A stretch of 64,000 nucleotides of DNA from an uncultured Chthonomonadaceae bacterium. Lineage in GTDB: Bacteria; Armatimonadota; Chthonomonadetes; Chthonomonadales; Chthonomonadaceae. The notes under the pieces were generated by a model, which did no database searches, was not told the origin of the DNA, and worked only from the letters and a program-made list of their open reading frames with translations. The stretch covers positions 1 through 64,000 of the forward strand of contig CAWIEK010000068.1 of the NCBI GenBank assembly GCA_963835065.1, given 5' to 3'. Positions 1,855 to 54,240 of this stretch are shown piece by piece (position 1 is the stretch's first letter; every line of letters begins with the position of its first letter). The position numbers were made by a program, and so were the translations under genes.

Positions 1855-2195
1855 AAAAGGACAGAAAAAAGTGCCAATTAGCGCGAAAAGAACGAACCTT
1901 TTGCCCAACGCAGCCGTCTAAACAGTAGAACAATGTCTACATACCAGATGTTAGACACACAGGAAGGGAGGTGCAAAGCTATGTTTCACCCCTCCCGTTC
2001 GCCCTGACGCCGCTGAGGTCACGACGCCTCACTCCTACAATCAGACACAACGAGACATCGGGCTGGAAGCGCTGTATTGCCAAGATTTCGACGATGACTC
2101 TACATATTCTTTCTTCTACCAACACTTTCCCGTCGTGCTTGCAGGACTTTCCATTGATAAAGGGCAGGCTTCCTGCTGGTTCGGGAGGAATTAAA
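1855..2195 (+). ncRNA. Dispersed structured RNA/micro-ORF element, copy 1
   Basis: GAACCT 1894-1899, N16, GTCTAA 1916-1921; SD GGAAGGGAGGTG; micro-ORF 1981-2007 MFHPSRSP*; 53-nt core 2044-2096 shared with three other copies. RNA status is inferred. Confidence 0.65.
1894..1921 (+). promoter_or_regulatory. ECF-sigma-type promoter GAACCT-N16-GTCTAA
   Basis: Both boxes and the 16-nt spacing conserved in all four copies while the spacer varies; resembles RpoE-class GAAC/TCTAA promoters. Confidence 0.7.
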
Positions 2196-2205
2196 TGTAC
2201 GGGAC

Positions 2206-4002
2206 CTAGCCGAGTTTAAGGACGGATAGGAACGCTTCCTGCGGGATTTCGATGCTGCCGACAGACTTCATGCGCTTTTTGCCTTCCTTCTGCTTTTCCA
2301 GCAGCTTGCGCTTGCGGGTGATGTCGCCGCCGTAGCACTTGGCAATCACGTTCTTGCGGAACGCCTTAACGGTTTCCGCGCTGATGATTTTGCCGCCTAT
2401 CGCCGCCTGTATCCGCACCTCGTACTGCTGGCGCGGAACCACTTCCTTTAGTTTTTCCACAATTAACTTGGCCCGCTCGTATGCCTTGTCGCGGTGCGTG
2501 ATAAATGAAAGCGCGTCTACCGGGTCGCCGTTCATCTGAATGTCAATCTTCACCAGTTTACTATCCCGATAGCCGCTCAACTCGTAATCGAAACTGGCGT
2601 AGCCTTTGGTGCGCGATTTCAACTGGTCGAAAAAGTCCATCAGGATTTCGGAAAGCGGGATTTTGTAGCGCAGCATCACGCGCTCCGGCGCGGGGTATTC
2701 CAGGCTGACAAACTCACCCCGCCGGTCACGGCACAGTTCCATAATCGTGCCGACATAATCTTTGGGCAAAATCAGCGTGGCGTCCACAAACGGCTCTTCC
2801 GTGAAATCAATCAGCGTCGGATTGGGCATATCAGCGGGGTTGTCCACGTCCATAATCTTGCCGTCCGTGCGATGCACCTTGTACACAACAGAGGGACTGG
2901 TCGCAATCAGGGATAAATCGAACTCGCGCTCCAATCGCTCCTGTATCACGTCCATGTGCAGCAGTCCGAGAAAGCCGCAGCGATAGCCGAAGCCCAACGC
3001 CGCCGAGGTTTCCGCCTCGAAACTTAAGGCCGCGTCGTTCAACTGCAATTTAGACAGGGCTTCGCGCAGTTCGGGATAATCCGCGCTGTCAATCGGATAC
3101 AGGCCGCAGAACACCATCGGCTTGGCTTCGCGGTACGTGCCCAGCAATTCTTTGGCGGGATGGGCCGCGTCCGTAATCGTGTCGCCGACATTCGCGTCGC
3201 CAATGGTCTTGATGCTTGCCGCCACATACCCGACTTCGCCCGTTCCAATCATTTGCCCCACGCGGCGTTCCGGGCCGAACGAGCCGAGTTCAATCACTTC
3301 AAACTCCTTGCCCGTCGCCATAAACCGGATTTTCTGCCCGCTTTTGATATGCCCGTCCACGACGCGCACATAGGAGATAACGCCCAGATACTGGTCGAAT
3401 TTGCTGTCGAAAATCAGGGCGCGAAGCGGGGCGTCGGGATTGCCCGAAGGCGGCGGAATTTTACGGACAACCTGCTCCAGAATGTCCACAATGCCGATCC
3501 CCGCTTTGGCGCTTGCCAGCACCGCGTCGCTTGCGTCCAGAGCCAGCACGTTTTCGATCTCTTCCCGAACGCGCTCCGGTTCGGCTGCGGGCAGATCAAT
3601 TTTGTTGATGACCGGGATCAGTTCCAGATTGTTCTGGTAGGCCAGATTGACGTTGGCGAGCGTTTGCGCTTCCACGCCCTGCGCCGCGTCCACAACCAGC
3701 AGCGCGCCTTCGCAGGCCGCTAAACTGCGCGACACTTCATAAGTAAAATCCACGTGGCCGGGCGTGTCTATCAGATTGAACTCGTACTCCTGTCCATCCA
3801 GCGCGATATAATGCAGGCGAATAGCGGTCATTTTGATGGTGATGCCCCGTTCGCGCTCCAAATCCATCGTGTCCAGAAGCTGCGCCTGCATGTCGCGCTT
3901 GGCGATGGCGTTGGTGGTTTCCAGAATACGGTCGGCAAGCGTGGACTTGCCATGATCAACGTGGGCAATGATGCAAAAATTTCGGATATGGTCTTGGTTC
4001 AT
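2206..4002 (-). CDS. lepA: Elongation factor 4 (LepA)
   Basis: [56 protein letters not shown]. Confidence 0.99.
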
Positions 4003-4154
4003 GTTCAGCTTTCAGCAGAATTCGCAAGCGCAGGACAAGCAGCGCGTTTCAGGCATGGATTCTCCCTGTATTATAGCATAGCCGACAAATTACAGGCGGA
4101 ACGCCGGTATGCGACATTCCGCTCGCGCGTATACTATTGTTTATAACGGCAAAC

Positions 4155-4658
4155 TCAAGACAGAGAAGCAAGAAAAGCGGGAAGGTCGGCAGGGGCAATT
4201 GTTTCGGGGTTGAGGGTTTTCAAACCTTCTGATTCGGCGGCGCGAAGCAGGCGATTATCGGCAGCAACCAGTACGCATATCGGCTCGTCTGCGGACACAA
4301 ACTCGGCGTAGCGCAGATAAGCGGCAAGGATCGCGGCATCGGTGGAATTGATATTATGGGCGTCTGATAGCGCGATCCCTGCAAGTATGTCTTCGTCAAG
4401 AGTGGACAGCAGGGTAAATCGGTTGCTGTTCAGAACGTCGTCTTCCAGCAACAGGCGCGCATCTGTGTAATCTTGCTGCGACAACTGGCGGTTGTTCCGT
4501 TTTCGACGCAGGATGGCGGCGGTTTCCGCGTAACAAATATAGGCTATCGCCATGTCAGGAACAGGTGTTAAGTCGAAAATAGCTTCAACAGTCAAATCGC
4601 CGGCTTCAGGAGCATACTTTTTGCCAAAACCGCTGGAATCCCACAGCAATACAGCCAT
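4155..4658 (-). CDS. VapC-like PIN toxin
   Basis: LLWDSSGFGKKY, AETAAILRRK and DAAILAA PIN motifs; directly downstream of a small gene. Confidence 0.8.
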   Translation of the reverse strand: MAVLLWDSSGFGKKYAPEAGDLTVEAIFDLTPVPDMAIAYICYAETAAILRRKRNNRQLSQQDYTDARLLLEDDVLNSNRFTLLSTLDEDILAGIALSDAHNINSTDAAILAAYLRYAEFVSADEPICVLVAADNRLLRAAESEGLKTLNPETIAPADLPAFLASLS

Positions 4659-4661
4659 CGT

Positions 4662-4955
4662 TTATTCCTCTTTGTTCTGCTCGTCCAGCTTGCTCTGTTC
4701 ATCCAGTTGGCGCATATACTCGTCCTGATCGTAATCATCGCCATAGCGCATGCGCAGCAATTCGCTGGTGAAGATTTTGTCTTCAGGACGAACGCCGTTG
4801 GCAATCATACGCTCTCTGAGTTGCGTTGTGGTGATTGTCGGCTTACCGGAAATACCTGCGCGGGCGTTGACTTCCCGCGCGATACGCCGTAGTTCCGCCT
4901 GCTTTTCTTCACTGGGAATCTGCGGCGATACTCTCTTTGTAGAAGAAGTAGTCAT
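4662..4955 (-). CDS. Putative antitoxin
   Basis: 97-aa ORF with acidic tail, 3 nt upstream of the PIN gene. Confidence 0.6.
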   Translation of the reverse strand: MTTSSTKRVSPQIPSEEKQAELRRIAREVNARAGISGKPTITTTQLRERMIANGVRPEDKIFTSELLRMRYGDDYDQDEYMRQLDEQSKLDEQNKEE

Positions 4956-5068
4956 TCTGTTTCTCCCTGTACTGCATCGGTCACAAGGGCGCGATATTGT
5001 ACGCTGTCGCCGATGTCGTGTTGTATTGTTATTATAGCACAGGACGAGCTTTAGGAAGCGGCGGCGTT

Positions 5069-5983
5069 TCAGGGCGTGGATTCGTGGGCGGGATGGAGAA
5101 GTTCGCGCGGGGCGGGGTCGGAACAGTCGTCAACGGAGCGCAACAGCCCCGCGCCCGTTTCCGGTTCCATTGCGCTTGCCCGGAGCAGGGTGTGGTTGGC
5201 GGTGTCGTAGACGGCGCGAGCTTCGAGCAGGGGCAGGCAATGCTGCGCGGCGCGTAAGACCTGCGGGTCTACGCGGGCGCGTCCGTTCCCGTTTGCCAGC
5301 CGCGTCACCGGGCCAATGGAACGGCCATCCCCTATTTTCTCCAAAGCCCCCAACAGCAAGACCACCAGGTCGGTGTTCACATCGTCGAGGGCGAGATGCA
5401 GGGATTGGCGGTGCGCGTCCGTGAACAGCACGGCATCAGCGGGTGTGAGCAAGGGCAGCAGTTCCTTCAAAGCGCGTTGTGGAATTCCCTGCATGTCGGC
5501 GTAACGCATCGCTTCCAACAGCGGGCCAATCGCGCGGACGTCCGATTCAGGAATGTTGGCGACCAGCACAGTCATTTGCCCGTGCAGTCCGCTTCCTATG
5601 CCCATCACGCCGACCGCACAGGCCGCCAGCCATTCAAACGGCGCAAGCAATGTGTCAATCAGCCCGCCATTGACCATCATTGCCACGCCCGCGACAAGCG
5701 CCGTCCCGCCCGTCAGCGCAAACGCGCGCAGGCAAAACTTACGCTGCCGCCACTTGCGCTTGAAGTCAATCAGCAGCCGGTTGAGCAGTTCCTGTTCCCG
5801 CTCCCATCGCGCCTGCTGCTGCTGAAGCGCCACGTGAGCCAGTATCGGCTCCGATTCCGCCTGTAATGGTTCCGCTTCCACGCGCTCAGAAGCATCATTC
5901 CGCTCACCCTGCAAGATATGCGCGAACACCTCCAAGTCTGCAGCGGTGACAGTCGGCGTGTCTTCCAAGATTATGTTCGGCAT
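5069..5983 (-). CDS. Membrane protein with HEAT-like repeats
   Basis: Two hydrophobic segments, then DVRAIGPLLEA and ALEKIGDGRSIGPV HEAT-like repeats. Confidence 0.7.
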   Translation of the reverse strand: MPNIILEDTPTVTAADLEVFAHILQGERNDASERVEAEPLQAESEPILAHVALQQQQARWEREQELLNRLLIDFKRKWRQRKFCLRAFALTGGTALVAGVAMMVNGGLIDTLLAPFEWLAACAVGVMGIGSGLHGQMTVLVANIPESDVRAIGPLLEAMRYADMQGIPQRALKELLPLLTPADAVLFTDAHRQSLHLALDDVNTDLVVLLLGALEKIGDGRSIGPVTRLANGNGRARVDPQVLRAAQHCLPLLEARAVYDTANHTLLRASAMEPETGAGLLRSVDDCSDPAPRELLHPAHESTP

Positions 5984-8683
5984 GTCTACTCCTCAAGCCG
6001 GTCGTTTCGCTTCTTCTGCCAGCCTCCCAACCCTTCTCAACCTGTTCATGCAGATGTTTCAAATAAGCGCGTTGGTTCGGAGGACGACCAACCTCAGAAG
6101 CGGCTTTATGCAAATGTCGCAGCGTTTCATCGTCACCAAGCTGCTGAAGAGCCTGCCCATACTGCCATGTTGACGTCAACTGATCTGCCGGAGTCTCCAA
6201 GACATACTGAAGATACTGACGCGCCAGCATGATGCGGCGGCGCTCCTTTATCGTTTCGTTCGCCGCGCCACGCACATTCGCTTCTCGGTCGTGCCGCGCC
6301 AGTTTGTAAAGCGCTTGGAACGCGGCCTCATCTGCAAGCCATGCCGCCGCTTCTATCCCGCATCCCCGCTCATGTACGTTTTCGCTGTCAAGCAGACGTT
6401 TCGCTTCCATACGAAGACGCGGCAGGTCAATTTCTGCCAGAGTGCGAGCCGCAATGCGTCGGATGTGGTAAACGCCGTCCGTCAGAAACTGCGCAAGTGT
6501 ATCCGCAGCCTCCGCAGCCTCCAATCCCCGGTAGGCTTTAACAACAGCCTCCCTTGCAGTGGCAGGCCAGTTGAAAACATCCTTAAACGGAAATTCTTGT
6601 ACAAACCGCTCAGGAGCAACCCGCCGCAATGTCCACAAAGTCTCTGTTTCGGCCTGAAAAGGTTTGTTGATAGGGTGTGCGCGTCTGCTCAGTGCGTCAA
6701 GGATTGCGGGTGAAGCGTTTTCTGCGCTTAACTGCGCGAACACCTGTATTGCTTCCCCATAACTCCTATTCTCGATAAGATCGCACACTGCCGAAGTAAA
6801 CTCTTCAGGATGGTTGCAAAACAGAAGCCCCAGGATGAAGGCTTCGCGGTCGGTTAAAGGGCGTGTCACCTTCCATGCAGTCTGTTCAGCAGACTCAAGA
6901 CCAAGTTCGTTTAACAAGTTATGGTGAGTATGTAGGGTTCCCCACCGCGCAAGAACTTCCATCGCTTCAACGGCGTTCCGCTCTGATCCACCTGCCAACT
7001 TCAGCAGCAATGCCTCTGTTCTTTCATCTTTATCAAAGCCGCCTAAAGCGGGAAGCAAATAATGCAGATAAAGAGGATCCTCTTGAAGCAGTCACGACAC
7101 AGCAAAGCAAACACTCGCTCACGATAAGGCGTAACCAGAGCGGGCGCTGTAAACATCACCTGCTGTAATGCGAACGCGCAGGAAATCCAACAATGCGGCA
7201 TTGCTGCTGGGCTTTGCTCCAAACAATCAATTAAGGGAGCAGCATCCTGCATTGTCAATACGCAGGCGATAAAGGCTTCCCCATGTTCTAATGGAGTCGT
7301 GGCGGCAATACTTACATCAGGTTTTCCATACTTAAAAGAAACCTGACTGTCTGTTAAAGCCTGAAATGCTTCTTTCGTGCCGATACTGCCAAGTGCCCGC
7401 AGAGCCGCTAAACCCGGCTCAGTATGTATCCCCCCCGGTTCGCGCCAGTCCGTGCGCTTAATGATATTGTGCAAATTTGGAACAGCTTCGGTAACGCGCA
7501 GGAAGCCAGCCAAGCGGCATATATCGGCAAGAGTAAAGGGACTGGTTTCGTTGAACGCTTCGACAAGCCACTGCCTTGCTTCCGACAAGTCAAGACGCAG
7601 GACAATGTTCCAGCTATGCTCCTTAATTAAAGTGAGTTGTGTCTGCCAAGCCCCTTTGTTATCAGTGTCTAAAACGGCATCCTGATGAAGACATTCAATT
7701 ACCTTGTTCCGCGTGTCAGCATCCGCACGGTTCAGGCTTGTGGACATTGCTGCAAGTTGCTGCGGTTGCTCCAGATCGCTGAGACGTAGATACGGATGGT
7801 AATGGTTACTCATCCGGCCCTGTTCACGTAAATGTTCCGGCGCGTCAGGCTCCAGGCGATGCAGGAAGAAATCTACTACGCGGCCATCATCTATTCCGCG
7901 AGTAATTTCTGACGCTAATTTAAGAGCATTGTAGAGAGCATCAACACCATTCTCCGATCTACCCGCATACTGAATTATCGTGTCCCACACGGCAGAGGCA
8001 ACTTCCGGGTGTGTCTGCGCTGTATCGGAAAGAACATACAACACAGTCTGAAGTTCGGTTTTCGTGTCCGACGAGAACTTGGCGCGAAGCAGGCAATCTT
8101 GAAAATATGGCAGCAGTTTCAAGGAGGCAAGGTGACTTCCACAACGCAGGACAAGTTCCGGTATAACGTCAACTTGCTCCAATACTTTCTGAATTGTCTC
8201 TTCGAGGAAAGCGCGGTCTGAATATCCAAGCCATGCCAGCCCCCACAAGGCGATATATTTGGTTTGCTCATCCGGCGGAGCGGTAACGAAGGCCAGAAGT
8301 TTGCGCTGCAACGCCTCATCCCGATAACCGATGAAGATGAACGTCCAGAGAACATTTTGCACCCGGATAGTGTCTGGTTTATCCAGTTCAGGAAGAAGGC
8401 GGCATATAACATCGTCACGCTTGTGTGGATTTTCCTTCAGCCAGCGTTTGAGCAAGCCATGAATGAAGTGACCCTCATAACCCGAACGTAAAGCACACTG
8501 CTCCAGCAGTTCGTTTTCAAAATCAGGGTACTCCAAATCCCATAGACGATCCAAGCCGGACGAAAGAACGCGCCAGCGCGTATCTTCGTCGTACTCGTCT
8601 GCCCTGTGAAGAAGCGTCAGCACTTCTTCCGGTTTTTTGGCTGCGCGTATTTCGTTGTGAATGTCAGACCATGTTTCGTTCAT
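5904..8683 (-). CDS. Large HEAT-repeat protein (~900 aa), split by an apparent frameshift near 7093; true stop probably near 5986
   Basis: ORFs 7043-8683 and 5904-7058 join by a one-base shift (..CRD / LLQEDPLYLHYLLPALGG..); HEAT motifs LAALRALGSIGTKEA, YHIRRIAARTLAEI, DREANVRGAA. Confidence 0.65.
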
Positions 8684-10929: not shown

Positions 10930-11270
10930 ACAAAAAACCCAGCAAAAAAGATAAAAAAAGAGCAAAAAACGCGAACCCTTTGCCCAATACAGCCGTCTAA
11001 ACAGTAGATCAACGTCTACTATTCAAATGTTAGACACCGGAAGGGAGGTGCCAGTCCTATGTACCCACACCCCCGTTCGCCCTGACGCTGCTGAGGCCAT
11101 GACGCCTCTCTTCTACAACTTGACACAACGAGACATCGGGCTGGAAGCGCTGTATTGCCAAGATTTCGACGATGACTCTACATATCCTTTTTCTGCCTAC
11201 CCGTTTCCCAACGCTACCAGAACTTCCGCTTGGCAAAAGTCGAGCTTCCCGCCGGTTCGGGAAGTTAAAG
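10930..11270 (+). ncRNA. Dispersed structured RNA/micro-ORF element, copy 2
   Basis: GAACCC 10973-10978, N16, GTCTAA 10995-11000; micro-ORF 11059-11085 MYPHPRSP*; core 11122-11174; 3' hairpin CTTCCCG-CCGGTT-CGGGAAG. Confidence 0.65.
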
Positions 11271-11333
11271 GTTCACAAACGATTAGTCAAAGCGCTAATC
11301 CACTCTCACTCTCCACTCTTCACTCTCACTTGA

Positions 11334-14850: not shown

Positions 14851-14971
14851 AGGTGTCAGGTTTCAGGTATCAGGTGTCAGGAAAAGCCATTCTGCTCACA
14901 TGGCAATTAATGTCAGAAGCGAGTAGGAATAGATGTTTTCCCTGACCCCTGATCCCTGAAACCTGACCCCT
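14851..14971. repeat. Inverted heptamer-repeat hairpin element (TCAGGTN arms)
   Basis: AGGTGTC-type tandem arm with complementary CCTGA arm around a ~58-nt spacer. Confidence 0.8.
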
Positions 14972-22789: not shown

Positions 22790-22916
22790 CAGTTGATAGT
22801 TCGTAGTTCCTGCGCCTCTATCAACTATCAACTATTAACTGCTTAGGGCATGAGCGTGTGCGGCGTCTGCGGACACATCAACATTCTATCAACTATCAAC
22901 TATCAACTATCAACTG
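22790..22916. repeat. CTATCAA heptamer tandem repeats
   Basis: Two CTATCAA tracts plus a short complementary arm. Confidence 0.8.
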
Positions 22917-38771: not shown

Positions 38772-39107
38772 ATGACAATTACACTGGACTTACCCCCGGA
38801 GTTGGAAGGGCAAATACAGCAGGTGGCGCGGGCACAGGGCAAGGATGTGGCTGCCTTCCTGCTTGACAGCATCCGTCAGCGCTTGCGCCATGACGTACTG
38901 CCCGAAGCGGATGCGCGTCTGCTTCAGATAATCAATGCCCCGATTGCTCCAGCGAGGGATAGATTTCCAGCCCCGAAGCAAGCGCCCCCTACGTTCCCCA
39001 AGACTCCAACAGCAACCATCCCACTAAAACAATCCCGCAAAAAAGACAGAAAAAAAGAGCAAAACAATGCGAAAAAAGCGAACCCTTTGCTCAACTCAGC
39101 CGTCTAA
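38772..39107 (+). pseudogene. RHH-like antitoxin gene whose 3' part runs into element copy 3
   Basis: MTITLDLPPELEGQIQQVARAQGKDV..LLQIIN, then read-through of A-tract DNA; its stop is the TAA of the element's -10 box. Confidence 0.55.
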
Positions 39108-39437
39108 ATAGCAGTACAAACGTCTACTACACAAACACAAAGGCTGAACGTTGGTAGTTCCTATCAACTATCAACTACACTAACAGGAAGGGAGGTGCAT
39201 GAGAATGTCCCTACACCCCTCCCGCCCGCCTTGACGCTGCTGCGAGGTCACGACGCCTCTCTTCTACAATCTGACACAACGAGACATCGGGCTGGAAGCG
39301 CTGCATTGCCAAGATTTCGACGATGCCTCTACATATCCTTTTTTCTGACTGCTCTTTTTTCATCTGCCGCCTGTCCAATGCACTTTCAAGACTCCCGTTG
39401 GCAAAGGCCGGAATTCCCGCTGGTTCGTGAAGTTATA
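39015..39437 (+). ncRNA. Dispersed structured RNA/micro-ORF element, copy 3
   Basis: GAACCC 39080-39085, N16, GTCTAA 39102-39107; micro-ORF 39205-39234 MSLHPSRPP*; core with one substitution; extra insert shared with copy 4. Confidence 0.65.
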
Positions 39438-39510
39438 GATTTATGGACTTTTTTATTCTCGCAAAGATGGGAAGACCGCTAACCTCTGTAGAAACGGAGT
39501 AGAACGAATT

Positions 39511-39869: not shown

Positions 39870-41552
<1,683 letters not shown>

Positions 41553-43075: not shown

Positions 43076-43191
43076 AGTAGTCAGTAGTCAGTAGTCAGTA
43101 GTCAGTAGAAGAACCCGCTTCTGCAATTCGTCATTGTCGCGCAAAGAGTGAACAGACAGGCATTTCTACTGACTACTGACTACTGACTACT
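43076..43191. repeat. Inverted heptamer-repeat hairpin element (AGTAGTC arms)
   Basis: (AGTAGTC)4 ... (GACTACT)3. Confidence 0.85.
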
Positions 43192-49691: not shown

Positions 49692-52370
49692 TTATAACGT
49701 GGTTGTAGCGTTAATCTGCCGCTTACGGATAAGAACGGATGCTGATTTTTCCTGTGTTGTTGGCGTTGGGGGCGGCGGCAATTGGAGGCGCAGCGCTTTT
49801 TGCACCAGTTCGGGACGCTGGAACTCTTTGGCGTAGTTGTCGCCGGTTTTCAGTTCGCCGCCCACGTTCCAGCGCAGGTAGGAAGCGATGTTGGCGGAGC
49901 CGTCGTAATGGCCCGCAGCGGTTTGCGCGATCCAGGCGAAGGGACGCGCGGCGAGGGCTTTGTCGTCCGGTGTGGCTGCGCCCGGTTTCTGCTCGTCGGG
50001 CGTGAGCGCGGGGAAGGCCGTCAGGCTTGCCAGCAGCGTTCCCGCGCGCGGGTCATGGATGACGAGCGATTCACCCGATGCCGTGAGCGGACGCCGGAAC
50101 GCGGACGGCAGGATGGCTAACTGCTCCAGCGACGTAATTGCAACCCGCTTGCCGACTGCAATATCCCATATAATAACCTGATTGCTTGTCGTTCGCGCGG
50201 CAAACCATTTGCTGTCATTGGAAAACGTCAGGCCGGAGGGATTGAAATTGTAATCCTGCGTGGCTTCGCTGTTGGGCGTTACCCCGGTTAAGATGCCCAC
50301 GATCTGCCCCGATTGGACGTTCCAGATACGCATTTTTTGCACCCCCCGCGTCAGGATGTATTTGGCGTCGGGGGAAAGCGTGATGCCGAACAGGTACTCC
50401 CCGTCCGTAATCTTCAAGTTGGATTTCAGCGCGCCTGTCGTCACGTCGTAAAACTGCACTTCGCGGTCCAGCATCGCCGCCAAAGTGGTCCCGTCCGCCG
50501 ACAAATGGATGCCGTCCTGGTAGCGTCCCGGCGCAACCGTCGCCCGCAACTGCCCGCCCGGCACGTCGTACAATTGAATCGCGCTGTTGTTCAGGACGAG
50601 AAACGTTTTGTTGTCGGGCGTGAAGCGGGCGATGCGTTCGCGCTCCAGTCCCGTGTTGTTGAACTGGCAGTTCAAGGTTCCGACAATCGTTCCCGTCGCC
50701 ACATCCACGAGAGATGTTTTTTCGCCGCTCACGGCCAGCAGTTTGCCGTCGGGCGAGAAGATGATGCGATTAGCGTTGGTGGTTCCATTCACGTTGGGCG
50801 AGTACAAGCGCCTCTTTTGCCTGGTTTGCAGGTCGTACACATCCACGCTGCCGCTGTGGGGAACCACAAACGCAAGGGTTTTGCCGTCCGGCGCGAACAC
50901 AGGTTCGGTTTGCAGATAGCGGTCGCGCGGCCCATACTGCTCATTGGTTTGGAAGTTGTCGCGCAATTGCCCCGTCAGCGTGTCCCAGATTTGCAGGTAG
51001 CCGTTGAAGGCAACACCGGCGGCGAGCGCTCCATCCGGCGAGTACGAAAAATAGTACAGCGCGCTGGACGCCTGGAACGCGGCAACCTGCTTCCCGCTCT
51101 GGCTGTTCCACACGCGCAGTCCACCGTCGCCGTCGCCGCCCACGAGCAGGGGATCGTTGGGCGCGAACAGCAGCATGTCCGTTTCCCCGCCCCCCTCGGT
51201 CATCACGCGCGGCTTGCCCGTCGCCACATCCCACAACTGAACGCCCTTCTGGTTTTCGTGCCAGTTGGGAGCGACGACGGCCAGCGTTTGCCCCGTTCGG
51301 TCAAAGCGCAGGGCGCGAACGCTGATTTCCGGCTTGCCCGGCAGGGTTGCCAGGCGCTTGCCGGTCGCCACGTCCCACACAAACACATCGCTCGGCGCTT
51401 CCTTGCTGCTTCTGTTGCTCCCTGTCGCCAGTTTCTTGCCGTCCGGCGAAAAGGCCAGGGACGTGACGGGCGAAGTATTGCCCTTCAGGGGTGGCAGCAG
51501 TTTGCCCGTTTTCAAATTCCATGCCCGCGCCCCGCTGTCGTTGTTGGCAAGGGCAAGCGCGGAGCTGTCCGGCGCAAACACAACGTCGGCGTTGTAGCCC
51601 TGATCGGAGCGGAGTTCAAACGGCTGGAGCGTCAATTTGGAAAGACCGGTTTCCGCGTCCACCAGTTGAAACGTCACCAATTTATACCGCCGGGGCGAGT
51701 TTGCGCCGTTGTTGTCGGTATCAATCTCTTCCTGCTCCTCGCGCTGAAACAGCAGGGTCTTGCCGTCGGGCAGAAACGCGAGCGGGCGTCCGTACTTTTG
51801 CTGTGTTTCCGGCTTCCACGCATGGGTGTCGGTCAGCGTACCCGTCCGCATGTCCCACATCTGCACCTGATTTTGGAACGTGTACGTCGTGACCATGTCG
51901 CCGCTGACGGCAAACGTGGCGTAACTGGAAGGCATGACCTGCGTTTGGCCTATCGGCTGCCCCGTTTCGGTGTTCCAAAAGCGCAATTGCCCGGAACTTT
52001 GCGTTACCAGCGTCTTGCCGCCGGCGGCAAACGCAATGCGCGAAACAGGCGCGCCCTGCGCCAGATTCAGCAGCAGTTGCCCGCTTTTGAGGTCCCACAA
52101 CCGCGCCGTGCCGTCCTGGCTGGCCGTTGCCAGCAGCGCTTTCCCCGGCGCAAAGACCATACTCAAAATGCGGTTCGAATGGCCTTGCTGGAGGACGGGG
52201 AGGGGGTTGGGAGTTGATAGTTGATAGTTGATAGTTGATAGTTGGCCGCTCGTTGCTTGCGCGACTATCGTTTGTCCTTTATTCCGGTTTTCGGCGTATT
52301 GCGCGAATGCCCTCTGAGTATTGGGCAAAAGCATTGTCATCATCAGCCATGCGTATTGTTGTCTCATCAT
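49692..52370 (-). CDS. Secreted WD40-repeat protein
   Basis: Signal-like N-terminus; many FSPDG/WD repeats. Confidence 0.9.
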   Translation of the reverse strand: MMRQQYAWLMMTMLLPNTQRAFAQYAENRNKGQTIVAQATSGQLSTINYQLSTPNPLPVLQQGHSNRILSMVFAPGKALLATASQDGTARLWDLKSGQLLLNLAQGAPVSRIAFAAGGKTLVTQSSGQLRFWNTETGQPIGQTQVMPSSYATFAVSGDMVTTYTFQNQVQMWDMRTGTLTDTHAWKPETQQKYGRPLAFLPDGKTLLFQREEQEEIDTDNNGANSPRRYKLVTFQLVDAETGLSKLTLQPFELRSDQGYNADVVFAPDSSALALANNDSGARAWNLKTGKLLPPLKGNTSPVTSLAFSPDGKKLATGSNRSSKEAPSDVFVWDVATGKRLATLPGKPEISVRALRFDRTGQTLAVVAPNWHENQKGVQLWDVATGKPRVMTEGGGETDMLLFAPNDPLLVGGDGDGGLRVWNSQSGKQVAAFQASSALYYFSYSPDGALAAGVAFNGYLQIWDTLTGQLRDNFQTNEQYGPRDRYLQTEPVFAPDGKTLAFVVPHSGSVDVYDLQTRQKRRLYSPNVNGTTNANRIIFSPDGKLLAVSGEKTSLVDVATGTIVGTLNCQFNNTGLERERIARFTPDNKTFLVLNNSAIQLYDVPGGQLRATVAPGRYQDGIHLSADGTTLAAMLDREVQFYDVTTGALKSNLKITDGEYLFGITLSPDAKYILTRGVQKMRIWNVQSGQIVGILTGVTPNSEATQDYNFNPSGLTFSNDSKWFAARTTSNQVIIWDIAVGKRVAITSLEQLAILPSAFRRPLTASGESLVIHDPRAGTLLASLTAFPALTPDEQKPGAATPDDKALAARPFAWIAQTAAGHYDGSANIASYLRWNVGGELKTGDNYAKEFQRPELVQKALRLQLPPPPTPTTQEKSASVLIRKRQINATTTL

Positions 52371-53870: not shown

Positions 53871-54240
53871 GGCAATGTCTCCAAAACGGAGAAATATGTA
53901 GAGTCATCGTCGAAATCTTGGCAATACAGCGCTTCCAGCCCGATGTCTCGTTGTGTCAAATTGTAGGAGTGAGGCGTCGTGACCTCGCAAAGCGTCAGGG
54001 CGCACGGGAGGGGTGAAACATAGGCCTGCACCTCCCTTCTGGGTTAGGGTTCTAGGGTTTTAGGTTGTTAGTTGTTAGGTTGTTAGTTGATAGGAACTGC
54101 GAACGTTCAGCCTTTGTGTCTGGATAGTAGACACTTGTGCTATTTAGACAGGAGGAATGGGGAAAAGGTTCGCTGTTTTCGGATTGTTTGGCTATTTTTT
54201 TCTGCTTCTTTTTTGGTGTGATTTTTTGCGGGAGGGTTGC
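53871..54240 (-). ncRNA. Dispersed structured RNA/micro-ORF element, copy 4
   Basis: Minus-strand GAACCT 54171-54166, N16, GTCTAA 54149-54144; micro-ORF 54021-53995 MFHPSRAP*; identical 53-nt core; heptamer-expanded insert. Confidence 0.65.

Follow-up and report, generated by a model that had tools for sequence, protein, structure and literature searches.

A candidate pause-prone leader mini-ORF in a genus-specific, high-copy intergenic repeat of Chthonomonadaceae

Arrest and leader peptides are known from particular operons, which they regulate as single-copy elements, and the intergenic repeat families of bacteria are generally taken as non-coding. Correia/NEMIS, ERIC, BOX and RUP are such families; they are short, transposase-less, high-copy and lineage-specific, and they lie between genes in either orientation. 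To our knowledge, none of them carries a conserved mini-ORF with a Shine-Dalgarno (SD) sequence and an ATG. In the ermC leader and the STAB-SD of cryIIIA, a strong SD, accompanied or not by a short ORF, is located near the 5' end of the RNA, and the resident ribosome protects the downstream RNA. The leader peptide TnaC has about 24 residues, with conserved Trp12, Asp16 and Pro24, and ends at a UGA that is read by RF2. Type I toxins are hydrophobic peptides of about 18 residues or more.

In RxPP arrest sequences, the permitted residues at x are Gly, Ala, Ser and Pro (PMC12992588). According to a further source (PMC10951233), RAPP arrest occurs while peptidyl-RAP-tRNA occupies the P site, where the Arg lies in a pocket of the 23S rRNA, and the stalling is relieved by mutation of the Arg or the Pro. 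A C-terminal Pro can stall termination, and release after Pro is slow for both RF1 and RF2 (PMC7246954, citing Hayes 2002 and Pierson 2016); the same source reports one reporter study in which a C-terminal Pro was without measurable effect on expression, and the effect may be species-specific. Short ORFs that stall at their own stop codon are described for PepNL (PMC11890864) and TnaC (PMC8450073).

The window analysed here is the whole stretch of 64,000 nucleotides from one contig of an uncultured Chthonomonadaceae bacterium, a host known from assembled genomes alone, whose genome comprises 8.0 Mb with 57% GC. Four sites in the window are copies of one repeat of about 300 bases, and the alignment shows that its best-conserved part extends from the SD to ...CTCTACATA. 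In copy 1, the order is an A-rich stretch, a 5' module, the SD, the mini-ORF, the hairpin P1, a linker, an invariant core and a pyrimidine tract. The features are as follows.

1860..2125, plus strand: repeat copy 1, whole unit, ends approximate (four-copy alignment; family of 162 from blastn and nhmmer)
1933..1951, plus strand: hairpin of the 5' module, AUGUCU-ACAUACC-AGAUGU, copy 1 (read from the sequence)
1966..1973, plus strand: Shine-Dalgarno GGGAGGTG, copy 1 (sequence)
1981..2007, plus strand: mini-ORF of copy 1, MFHPSRSP*, TGA followed by C (sequence and copy tally)
2015..2030, plus strand: hairpin P1, GAGGU-CACGAC-GCCUC, copy 1, 7 nt past the stop (alignment)
2031..2106, plus strand: C/A-rich linker and nearly invariant core of copy 1, 3' end CTCTACATA (alignment)
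10944..11205, plus strand: repeat copy 2, whole unit, ends approximate (sequence, alignment)
11043..11050, plus strand: SD of copy 2 (sequence)
11059..11085, plus strand: mini-ORF of copy 2, MYPHPRSP* (sequence)
11093..11184, plus strand: P1 (11093-11108), linker and core of copy 2 (sequence, alignment)
39040..39355, plus strand: repeat copy 3, whole unit, ends approximate (sequence, alignment)
39161-39177, plus strand: (CTATCAA)n heptamer array of copy 3, between the 5' module and the SD
39190..39197, plus strand: SD of copy 3 (sequence)
39205..39234, plus strand: mini-ORF of copy 3, MSLHPSRPP*, 9 codons, with a second in-frame ATG at 39199 (sequence)
39244..39335, plus strand: P1 (39244-39259; spacer 9 nt), linker and core of copy 3 (sequence, alignment)
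53880..54215, minus strand: repeat copy 4, whole unit, ends approximate (sequence, alignment)
54045-54094, minus strand: arrays of period 7-8, copy 4 (sequence)
54029..54036, minus strand: SD of copy 4 (sequence)
53995..54021, minus strand: mini-ORF of copy 4, MFHPSRAP* (sequence)
53895..53986, minus strand: P1 (53986-53971; spacer 8 nt), linker and core of copy 4 (sequence, alignment)

The sequence-only reading had described the mini-ORF in these four copies, and its description was reproduced in every detail: GGGAGGTG at 1966-1973, ATG at 1981 and TGA at 2005-2007 in copy 1; ATGs at 11059, 39205 and 54021 and stop ends at 11085, 39234 and 53995 in copies 2, 3 and 4, the last on the minus strand; and the four peptides listed above, that of copy 3 being one codon longer. 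In all four copies, GGAGGTG is followed by the ATG after 7-8 nt, and the TGA of CCYTGACGC is the stop. The segment CACCCCTCCC, which had been proposed to pair with the SD, is found in copies 1, 3 and 4 and is degraded in copy 2.

Both blastn and an nhmmer profile gave the same count of 162 core-bearing copies in the source genome. By BLAST, the core is present in the two further species sampled from the genus (2 of 40 relatives) and absent from the 38 genomes of other genera within the order, and a covariance model of the core with strict filters returned no match in 150 other genomes of the phylum. A scan for the exact pattern gave at least 33 matching stretches; among the matches listed, 32 of 33 lie on contigs titled Chthonomonadaceae (Armatimonadota). 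The same scan found no match in viral contigs and none in metagenome contigs. No Rfam family matched the window at its gathering score, and over copy 1 the matches were merely noise with E>1. The family thus appears to be genus-specific and absent from Rfam, and it corresponds, as far as these searches indicate, to no named RNA or arrest-peptide family.

Among the matches listed, the remaining one of 33 is a single copy in a metagenome-assembled genome titled Solirubrobacteraceae (G041:C7:44666-47866, at 1500-1700). This copy is truncated at its 5' side just before the ATG, so that everything upstream is missing, and it is surrounded by DNA of 66-70% GC, compared with 56-59% for the element itself. 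It hints at either a horizontal movement between phyla or a chimeric contig or assembly.

The 5' module (GAACC-TTTGCCC...GTCTAAA...hairpin) has 144 profile matches in the source genome. It was counted as paired with a core in 118 cases, in 117 of which it precedes the core by 0-156 nt; the two parts of the remaining pair are 5238 nt apart. A further 26 modules were counted as solitary, most of which overlap their own core by a few bases, and in the one solitary module that was inspected the core is cut off by another repeat. The hairpin of the module reads ACGTCT-ACTATAC-AGACGT or GTGTCT..AGACAC in other copies, its arms changing together between copies as seen by eye, and in copy 1 it contains G-U pairs that are compatible with the plus-strand RNA only. 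The flanks of the element are mosaic, with heptamer arrays between the 5' module and the SD and with other repeat modules downstream.

One such module is a second repeat (...ACTTCCCGTTGGCAAAGG..GGCTTCCCGCTGGTTCGGGAAGTTATAGATTTACGGAC) that is located downstream of copies 1-3, at 2140-2200, 11225-11275 and 39385-39440. Elsewhere in the genome, it lies upstream of many copies and is also arranged in long inverted pairs. Its appearance is that of a distinct family of MITE type that nests beside the element.

The tally over the source genome shows that an SD, an in-frame ATG and the conserved stop occur together in 153 of the 162 copies. The ATG and frame are kept in two others, which lack a GGAG-type SD within 17 nt; five copies have a private 1-nt frameshift, and ATT replaces ATG in two copies that form a duplicated pair. 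The frame check that had been suggested over all genomic copies thus found the in-frame ATG missing in just 7 of 162 copies of the source genome and in 1 of 42 of the second species. The latter set combines genome loci with named contigs after removal of duplicate sequences; SD and ATG are present in 41 of its 42 copies, and the other has CTG. The ORF has 8 codons in 113 copies and 9 codons in 40 copies of the source genome, and 8 codons in 26 and 9 in 15 copies of the second species. In the third species, it has 15-16 codons and starts with ATG, GTG, TTG or CTG; the frame is open in 5 of 6 copies, and a nonsense codon is located at codon 4 in the sixth. Of the 160 source-genome copies with a GGAG, 145 have it beginning 14-15 nt ahead of the ATG. 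The ATG is an invariant island, the entropy of its flanks being 0.7-1.7 bits. The two copies with ATT (G000:C30:36851-38094), which end in TAA, are the most diverged of the genome, identical to each other and about 1.1 kb apart, which corresponds to a local duplication.

The codon pattern was scored over 210 copies, consisting of 161 from the source genome and 49 from other genomes. A stop codon is present at the conserved site in all 210 copies (TGA 174, TAA 35, TAG 1), and UGA is the commonest stop in the source genome. The last codon is Pro in 208 copies (CCC 158, CCT 29, CCG 16, CCA 5), and the third-from-last codon is Arg in 196 (CGT 152, CGC 30, CGG 8, CGA 6). Between them, the middle codon of this R-x-P encodes Ser in 146 copies, Pro in 53, Ala in 9 and Gln in 2. 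In the 49 copies outside the source genome, the three positions of CGN have entropies of 0.39/0.25/1.69 bits and those of CCN 0.29/0.00/1.89 bits, and the second letter of the stop toggles between G and A. R-x-P-stop is read in 33 of the 41 distinct 12-nt end haplotypes. The stop-to-P1 spacer is 7 nt in 203 of 210 copies. The conserved motif is therefore R-(S/P/A)-P-stop rather than H-P-x-R-x-P as first described, since the upstream His-Pro is specific to a sub-family.

The private changes in the core amount to 0.18% per site in the source genome, so its copies are young or homogenised. At this rate, about 2 of 162 copies would be expected to lose the start or stop by chance, so the intactness within the genome says little by itself. 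That single copies decay, without strong constraint on each, is evident from the five private frameshifts. The constraint is visible between sub-families and species, and seems to act on the lineages that proliferate, because private frameshifts accrue at about the rate of other private changes. This pattern suggests that the element itself needs the mini-ORF for its life cycle or expression, and not that each of the 162 loci serves the host. As far as the sequences can tell, it is shown that, in the lineages from which the copies descend, selection preserved the start, the reading frame, the position of the stop and the final R-x-P. The proposal of a translated or arrest-type leader is thus upheld for its first half, as translation is indicated by the start, the frame, the stop and the synonymous variation of Arg and Pro across sub-families and three species; its second half, arrest, would fit the location of the constrained residues immediately before the stop, which is also their place in arrest peptides. 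On this comparative evidence, the mini-ORF is real and unusually well supported, with an arrest-like end.

As in the RxPP group (ApdA, ApdP and SecM-type RAGP), the Arg-small residue-Pro of the mini-ORF would occupy the P-site tRNA, and the middle residues match those reported for RxPP. The mini-ORF also resembles these peptides in being constrained at its last residues only, with a free N-terminal part. The restriction to the last three of 8 residues would, by analogy, be the signature of an interaction with the peptidyl-transferase centre. However, the codon after R-x-P is a stop in all 210 copies and never one for Pro or Gly, so that no RxPP is formed. In the known RxPP arrest, the A-site partner is Pro-tRNA rather than a release factor; the mechanism therefore need not carry over to the mini-ORF. 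Unlike the RxPP arrest peptides, the mini-ORF has 8-9 codons and no part that senses membrane or secretion, is not located upstream of Sec/YidC or of any fixed gene, and exists in about 160 copies inside a repeat.

The likeness to TnaC, PepNL and proline stalling is that of a short upstream-type ORF whose stop is the proposed pause site and whose final Pro is TnaC-like. The similarity to TnaC and PepNL is in the final Pro alone, and no tna-like operon lies downstream. Unlike in TnaC, UAA and UAG serve equally in the sister species, which indicates no RF2 specificity; the mini-ORF has 8-9 (or 15-16) codons and no conserved Trp or Asp, and 35 TAA and one TAG are found among its stops. In comparison with the ermC leader and STAB-SD, the part protected by a ribosome would be a non-coding core and not an mRNA. 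Among the repeat families, the element is like BOX in consisting of modules that are separated by varying numbers of short tandem units, whereas it has no clear terminal inverted repeats or target duplications, unlike Correia/NEMIS, ERIC, BOX and RUP. It is best filed as a combination of two known kinds, namely an arrest-like mini-ORF inside an intergenic repeat. A type I toxin-antitoxin locus was rejected as a classification, as the peptides have 8-9 residues and are rich in Pro, Ser, His and Arg.

Downstream of the stop, P1 (GAGGY...GCCUC) and a GAGAC/GUCUC helix show one-sided changes only (U-G to C-G, G-C to G-U), which are compatible with a plus-strand RNA. A compensatory change was found in 0 of 15 predicted pairs of the core, and the folding energy of the core is ordinary relative to shuffled sequences (z = +0.94 for copy 1 and -0.82 for one third-species copy). 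The suggestion that a switch controls folding of the downstream core finds no support here: no covariation defines a fold, and with energies no better than those of shuffles, 'control of a fold' would refer to no defined fold. The variable columns of the core fall into the codon phases as 7/6/6, with no periodicity, and the linker length differs by 1-2 nt between copies and species; therefore, the core is non-coding and no frameshift or readthrough product is conserved. About 45 nt of the core are invariant or nearly so across the three species, which, from the comparison of copies, points to sequence-specific recognition by some factor.

The other part of the earlier proposal, a switch in which the ORF occludes its own SD, was evaluated by comparing the SD:ORF duplex energy with the values obtained after the letters of each ORF had been shuffled. 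The median duplex energy is -12.7 kcal/mol, and the median of the shuffle means is -12.56 kcal/mol, which indicates that the C-rich composition of the ORF suffices. A duplex with p<=0.05 was found in 0 of 153 source-genome copies and in 0 of 41 second-species copies, and no outstanding pairing was found in the four third-species copies scored. Of the 144 sequence variants of the source genome, the 60 commonest were inspected, and among them hairpins between GGGAGG and the C-rich codons are predicted with energies of about -10 to -16 kcal/mol. The pairing is physically plausible and indistinguishable from the by-product of a Pro/Ser/His-rich ORF opposite a G-rich SD.

In its distribution, the element is short, high-copy, non-autonomous and dispersed in the manner of a MITE, with 162 units in which the mini-ORF is the sole conserved ORF. 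The A-rich 5' motif AGAAAAAAGAG and the 3' motif CTCTTTTTTCT form an inverted-repeat match of 6-15 nt in 108 copies, and exact 11-mers of these motifs flank just 8 cores. In the window, 1860-1880 (..ACAGAAAAAAGAG..) and 2107-2125 (..CTCTTTTTTCTAC..) are reverse complements, as are the corresponding places of other copies. The A-rich stretch and the pyrimidine tract change together in some copies (GATAG.../...CTATC), and their complementarity could mean either terminal inverted repeats of a weak kind or pairing between the 5' and 3' parts of the RNA. No further inverted repeats were found at the element, and no target-site duplication was found at the sharp ends of five third-species copies sharing the 5' module. 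An nhmmer search with the core and the 5' module and a short-word BLAST search with the core found no autonomous parent in the genome; a 1681-nt unit between A/T-rich motifs was considered as a parent and rejected as ordinary coding DNA. By nhmmer, no core occurs outside the 162 units of the source genome. The locus of copy 1 holds a tandem paralogue and no empty site in the sister species, and the synteny at copy 2 is broken; the exact ends of the element are therefore undefined.

The orientations of the neighbouring genes, obtained with a crude ORF caller, are mixed (52 opp/opp, 40 same/opp, 38 opp/same and 25 same/same), and no regulated target gene is evident. No neighbour gene is conserved for the sub-family that is common to all four genomes, and the neighbours of five copies are unrelated housekeeping genes. 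The promoter scan found no sigma-70-like promoter, and the sole candidates in the terminator scan are weak, on the opposite strand and near copy 2.

An IS200/IS605 relic or a TnpB omega-RNA was considered as the identity of the element and rejected: among 12 TnpB and 4 Y1 matches, none lies beside a core except one divergent chance neighbour. No linkage of the element to TnpB, Y1 transposase or the two reverse transcriptase genes was found.

The reading that we prefer, with a confidence slightly better than even, is that of a translated and probably pause-prone leader mini-ORF belonging to a genus-specific, high-copy, non-autonomous and MITE-like intergenic repeat. In each unit, a strong SD is followed, in this order, by an ATG, a frame of 8-9 codons (15-16 in one species) with Arg-(Ser/Pro/Ala)-Pro-stop at its end, the fixed 7-nt spacer, the small hairpin P1 and a nearly invariant non-coding core of about 75 nt. 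Ribosomes would translate the mini-ORF and dwell at the stop codon after R-x-P. The dwell is proposed because R-x-P matches RxPP, because release after Pro is slow and because short ORFs that stall at their own stop are known. With the stop codon in the A site, the leading edge of the ribosome would reach the first pairs of P1 through the fixed 7-nt spacer; this geometry is taken from general knowledge of ribosome footprints. The dwell would then decide how the core RNA just downstream folds or what becomes of it, possibly by protecting it from 5' decay, by controlling the access of Rho or nucleases, or by the choice of a fold.

Four other explanations were weighed against the translated leader. 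It is unlikely that the mini-ORF is a relic, in which a start was fused to the last codons after an insertion sequence lost the interior of its gene, and which looks conserved because the copies are young. The very low private divergence, the five tolerated frameshifts, the MITE-like habits (intergenic, in either orientation, high copy) and the one 5'-truncated copy in an unrelated genome of 66-70% GC are in line with such an origin. However, the genome has no full-length parent, the module and core keep their distance in all but one pair, the nhmmer matches to the core are confined to the 162 units, and the TnpB, Y1 transposase and reverse transcriptase genes are unlinked to the element. Youth also fails to account for the preservation of the start, the frame, a stop for which all three stop codons are used, and a synonymous R-x-P among sub-families and species whose ORFs diverge along their whole length. 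The same variation bears on the possibility that GGAGG, AUG and UGA/UAA together form an untranslated motif, either an RNA structure or a binding site for protein or rRNA, with a coincidental three-base rhythm. Pairing between the SD and the C-rich ORF is possible in almost every copy of two species, the CGCCCUGACGC region is conserved as sequence within the source genome, and a core that is conserved without covariation indicates that sequence-specific recognition matters in this element. Against such a motif, the AUG is invariant amid flanks of 0.7-1.7 bits, the second stop position changes between G and A only (with one TAG), the third positions of CGN and CCN are near maximal entropy with positions 1-2 fixed, and the ORF length changes in whole codons; the SD:ORF pairing, moreover, is no better than in the shuffled controls. 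This explanation is accordingly given little credence.

An SD/anti-SD switch, in which the C-rich codons sequester the SD, the opening of the hairpin is regulated and the peptide is irrelevant, would be supported by the predicted hairpin energies and by the distance from CUCCC to the Arg, which by inspection is kept, though the segment is read as Pro-Ser or Ser-Pro depending on the sub-family. We consider it quite improbable, as shuffled ORFs pair equally well in both larger sets, the four scored third-species copies show nothing, and the switch leaves the synonymous conservation of R-x-P and the fixed stop unexplained. The least probable explanation, to which we attach hardly any weight, is recoding, in which CCC-UGA-C with a hairpin 7 nt further on would direct a +1 frameshift or readthrough into a longer protein spanning the core. 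Two frames of the core are open in the source genome, where copies 1 and 2 are covered by ORFs of 82-113 aa; CCC-UGA is similar to shift-prone sites, and recoding is promoted by a hairpin placed 5-9 nt downstream. Nevertheless, the variable columns of the core are unphased, the linker shifts of 1-2 nt conserve no downstream frame, many copies have UAA or UAG and CCG, CCT or CCA instead of CCC-UGA, and the sequence past the core is mosaic and unrelated between copies.

If the translated leader is accepted, a role for it can be proposed tentatively, and we regard the following as rather doubtful: the spread or activity of the element may depend on ribosome pausing on its own leader, or the approximately 160 distributed pause sites may serve the cell. 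In the former case, the ribosome, parked at a fixed distance from the invariant RNA core, would deliver, protect or process this core for propagation, as Alu RNA exploits the ribosome; in the latter, the pause sites would read out the capacity for termination or for proline-related translation. If true, either role would for the first time connect arrest-type peptides with repeat families of bacteria. Should the pause prove real, it would carry the RxP module over from elongation arrest to termination, with 8 residues as the shortest context so far, and it would provide a handle on the role of an abundant and otherwise opaque repeat family. What the copies present is a repeat family with a mini-ORF in nearly every copy across three species, whose coding signature is confined to an arrest-like R-x-P-stop.

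Some further features were seen nearby and in the genome. The window contains about 30 short tandem arrays of period 7, with units such as AGGTGTC, CTATCAA, CGATTTT, TCTTCTG, CCTGTTC and AGTAGTC, for example at 14851-14881, 22886-22915, 41002-41159, 43076-43191 and 52212-52244; they are often clustered and often perfect. They flank the repeat studied here as well, without being specific to it, and recall the heptamer repeats of cyanobacteria.

A pair of genes resembling a type XIII retron is located at G000:C50:49500-57500 (ORFs 2983-4413 and 4541-6535, both on the minus strand), where the reverse transcriptase matches PADLOC RT_XIII (E 8e-163) and the adjoining SWIM/BRCT protein matches SWIM_XIII (E 7e-169). 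The reverse transcriptase is matched once in each sister species, by frames of similar length (484 and 503 aa, compared with 484 in the source). Another reverse transcriptase gene lies directly upstream of a Cas1 gene at G000:C49:678500-685500 (ORFs 2930-4114 and 4282-4953, both on the plus strand), which suggests an RT-associated CRISPR adaptation module. Two genes for Y1 (HUH) transposases, with frames of 187 and 216 aa, are found at G000:C51:101607-104945 and G000:C42:75032-78370. The former especially is flanked by short palindromic repeats that are common to other intergenic regions, and the Y1 genes have the look of a RAYT/REP-type system that has no relation to the repeat described here.
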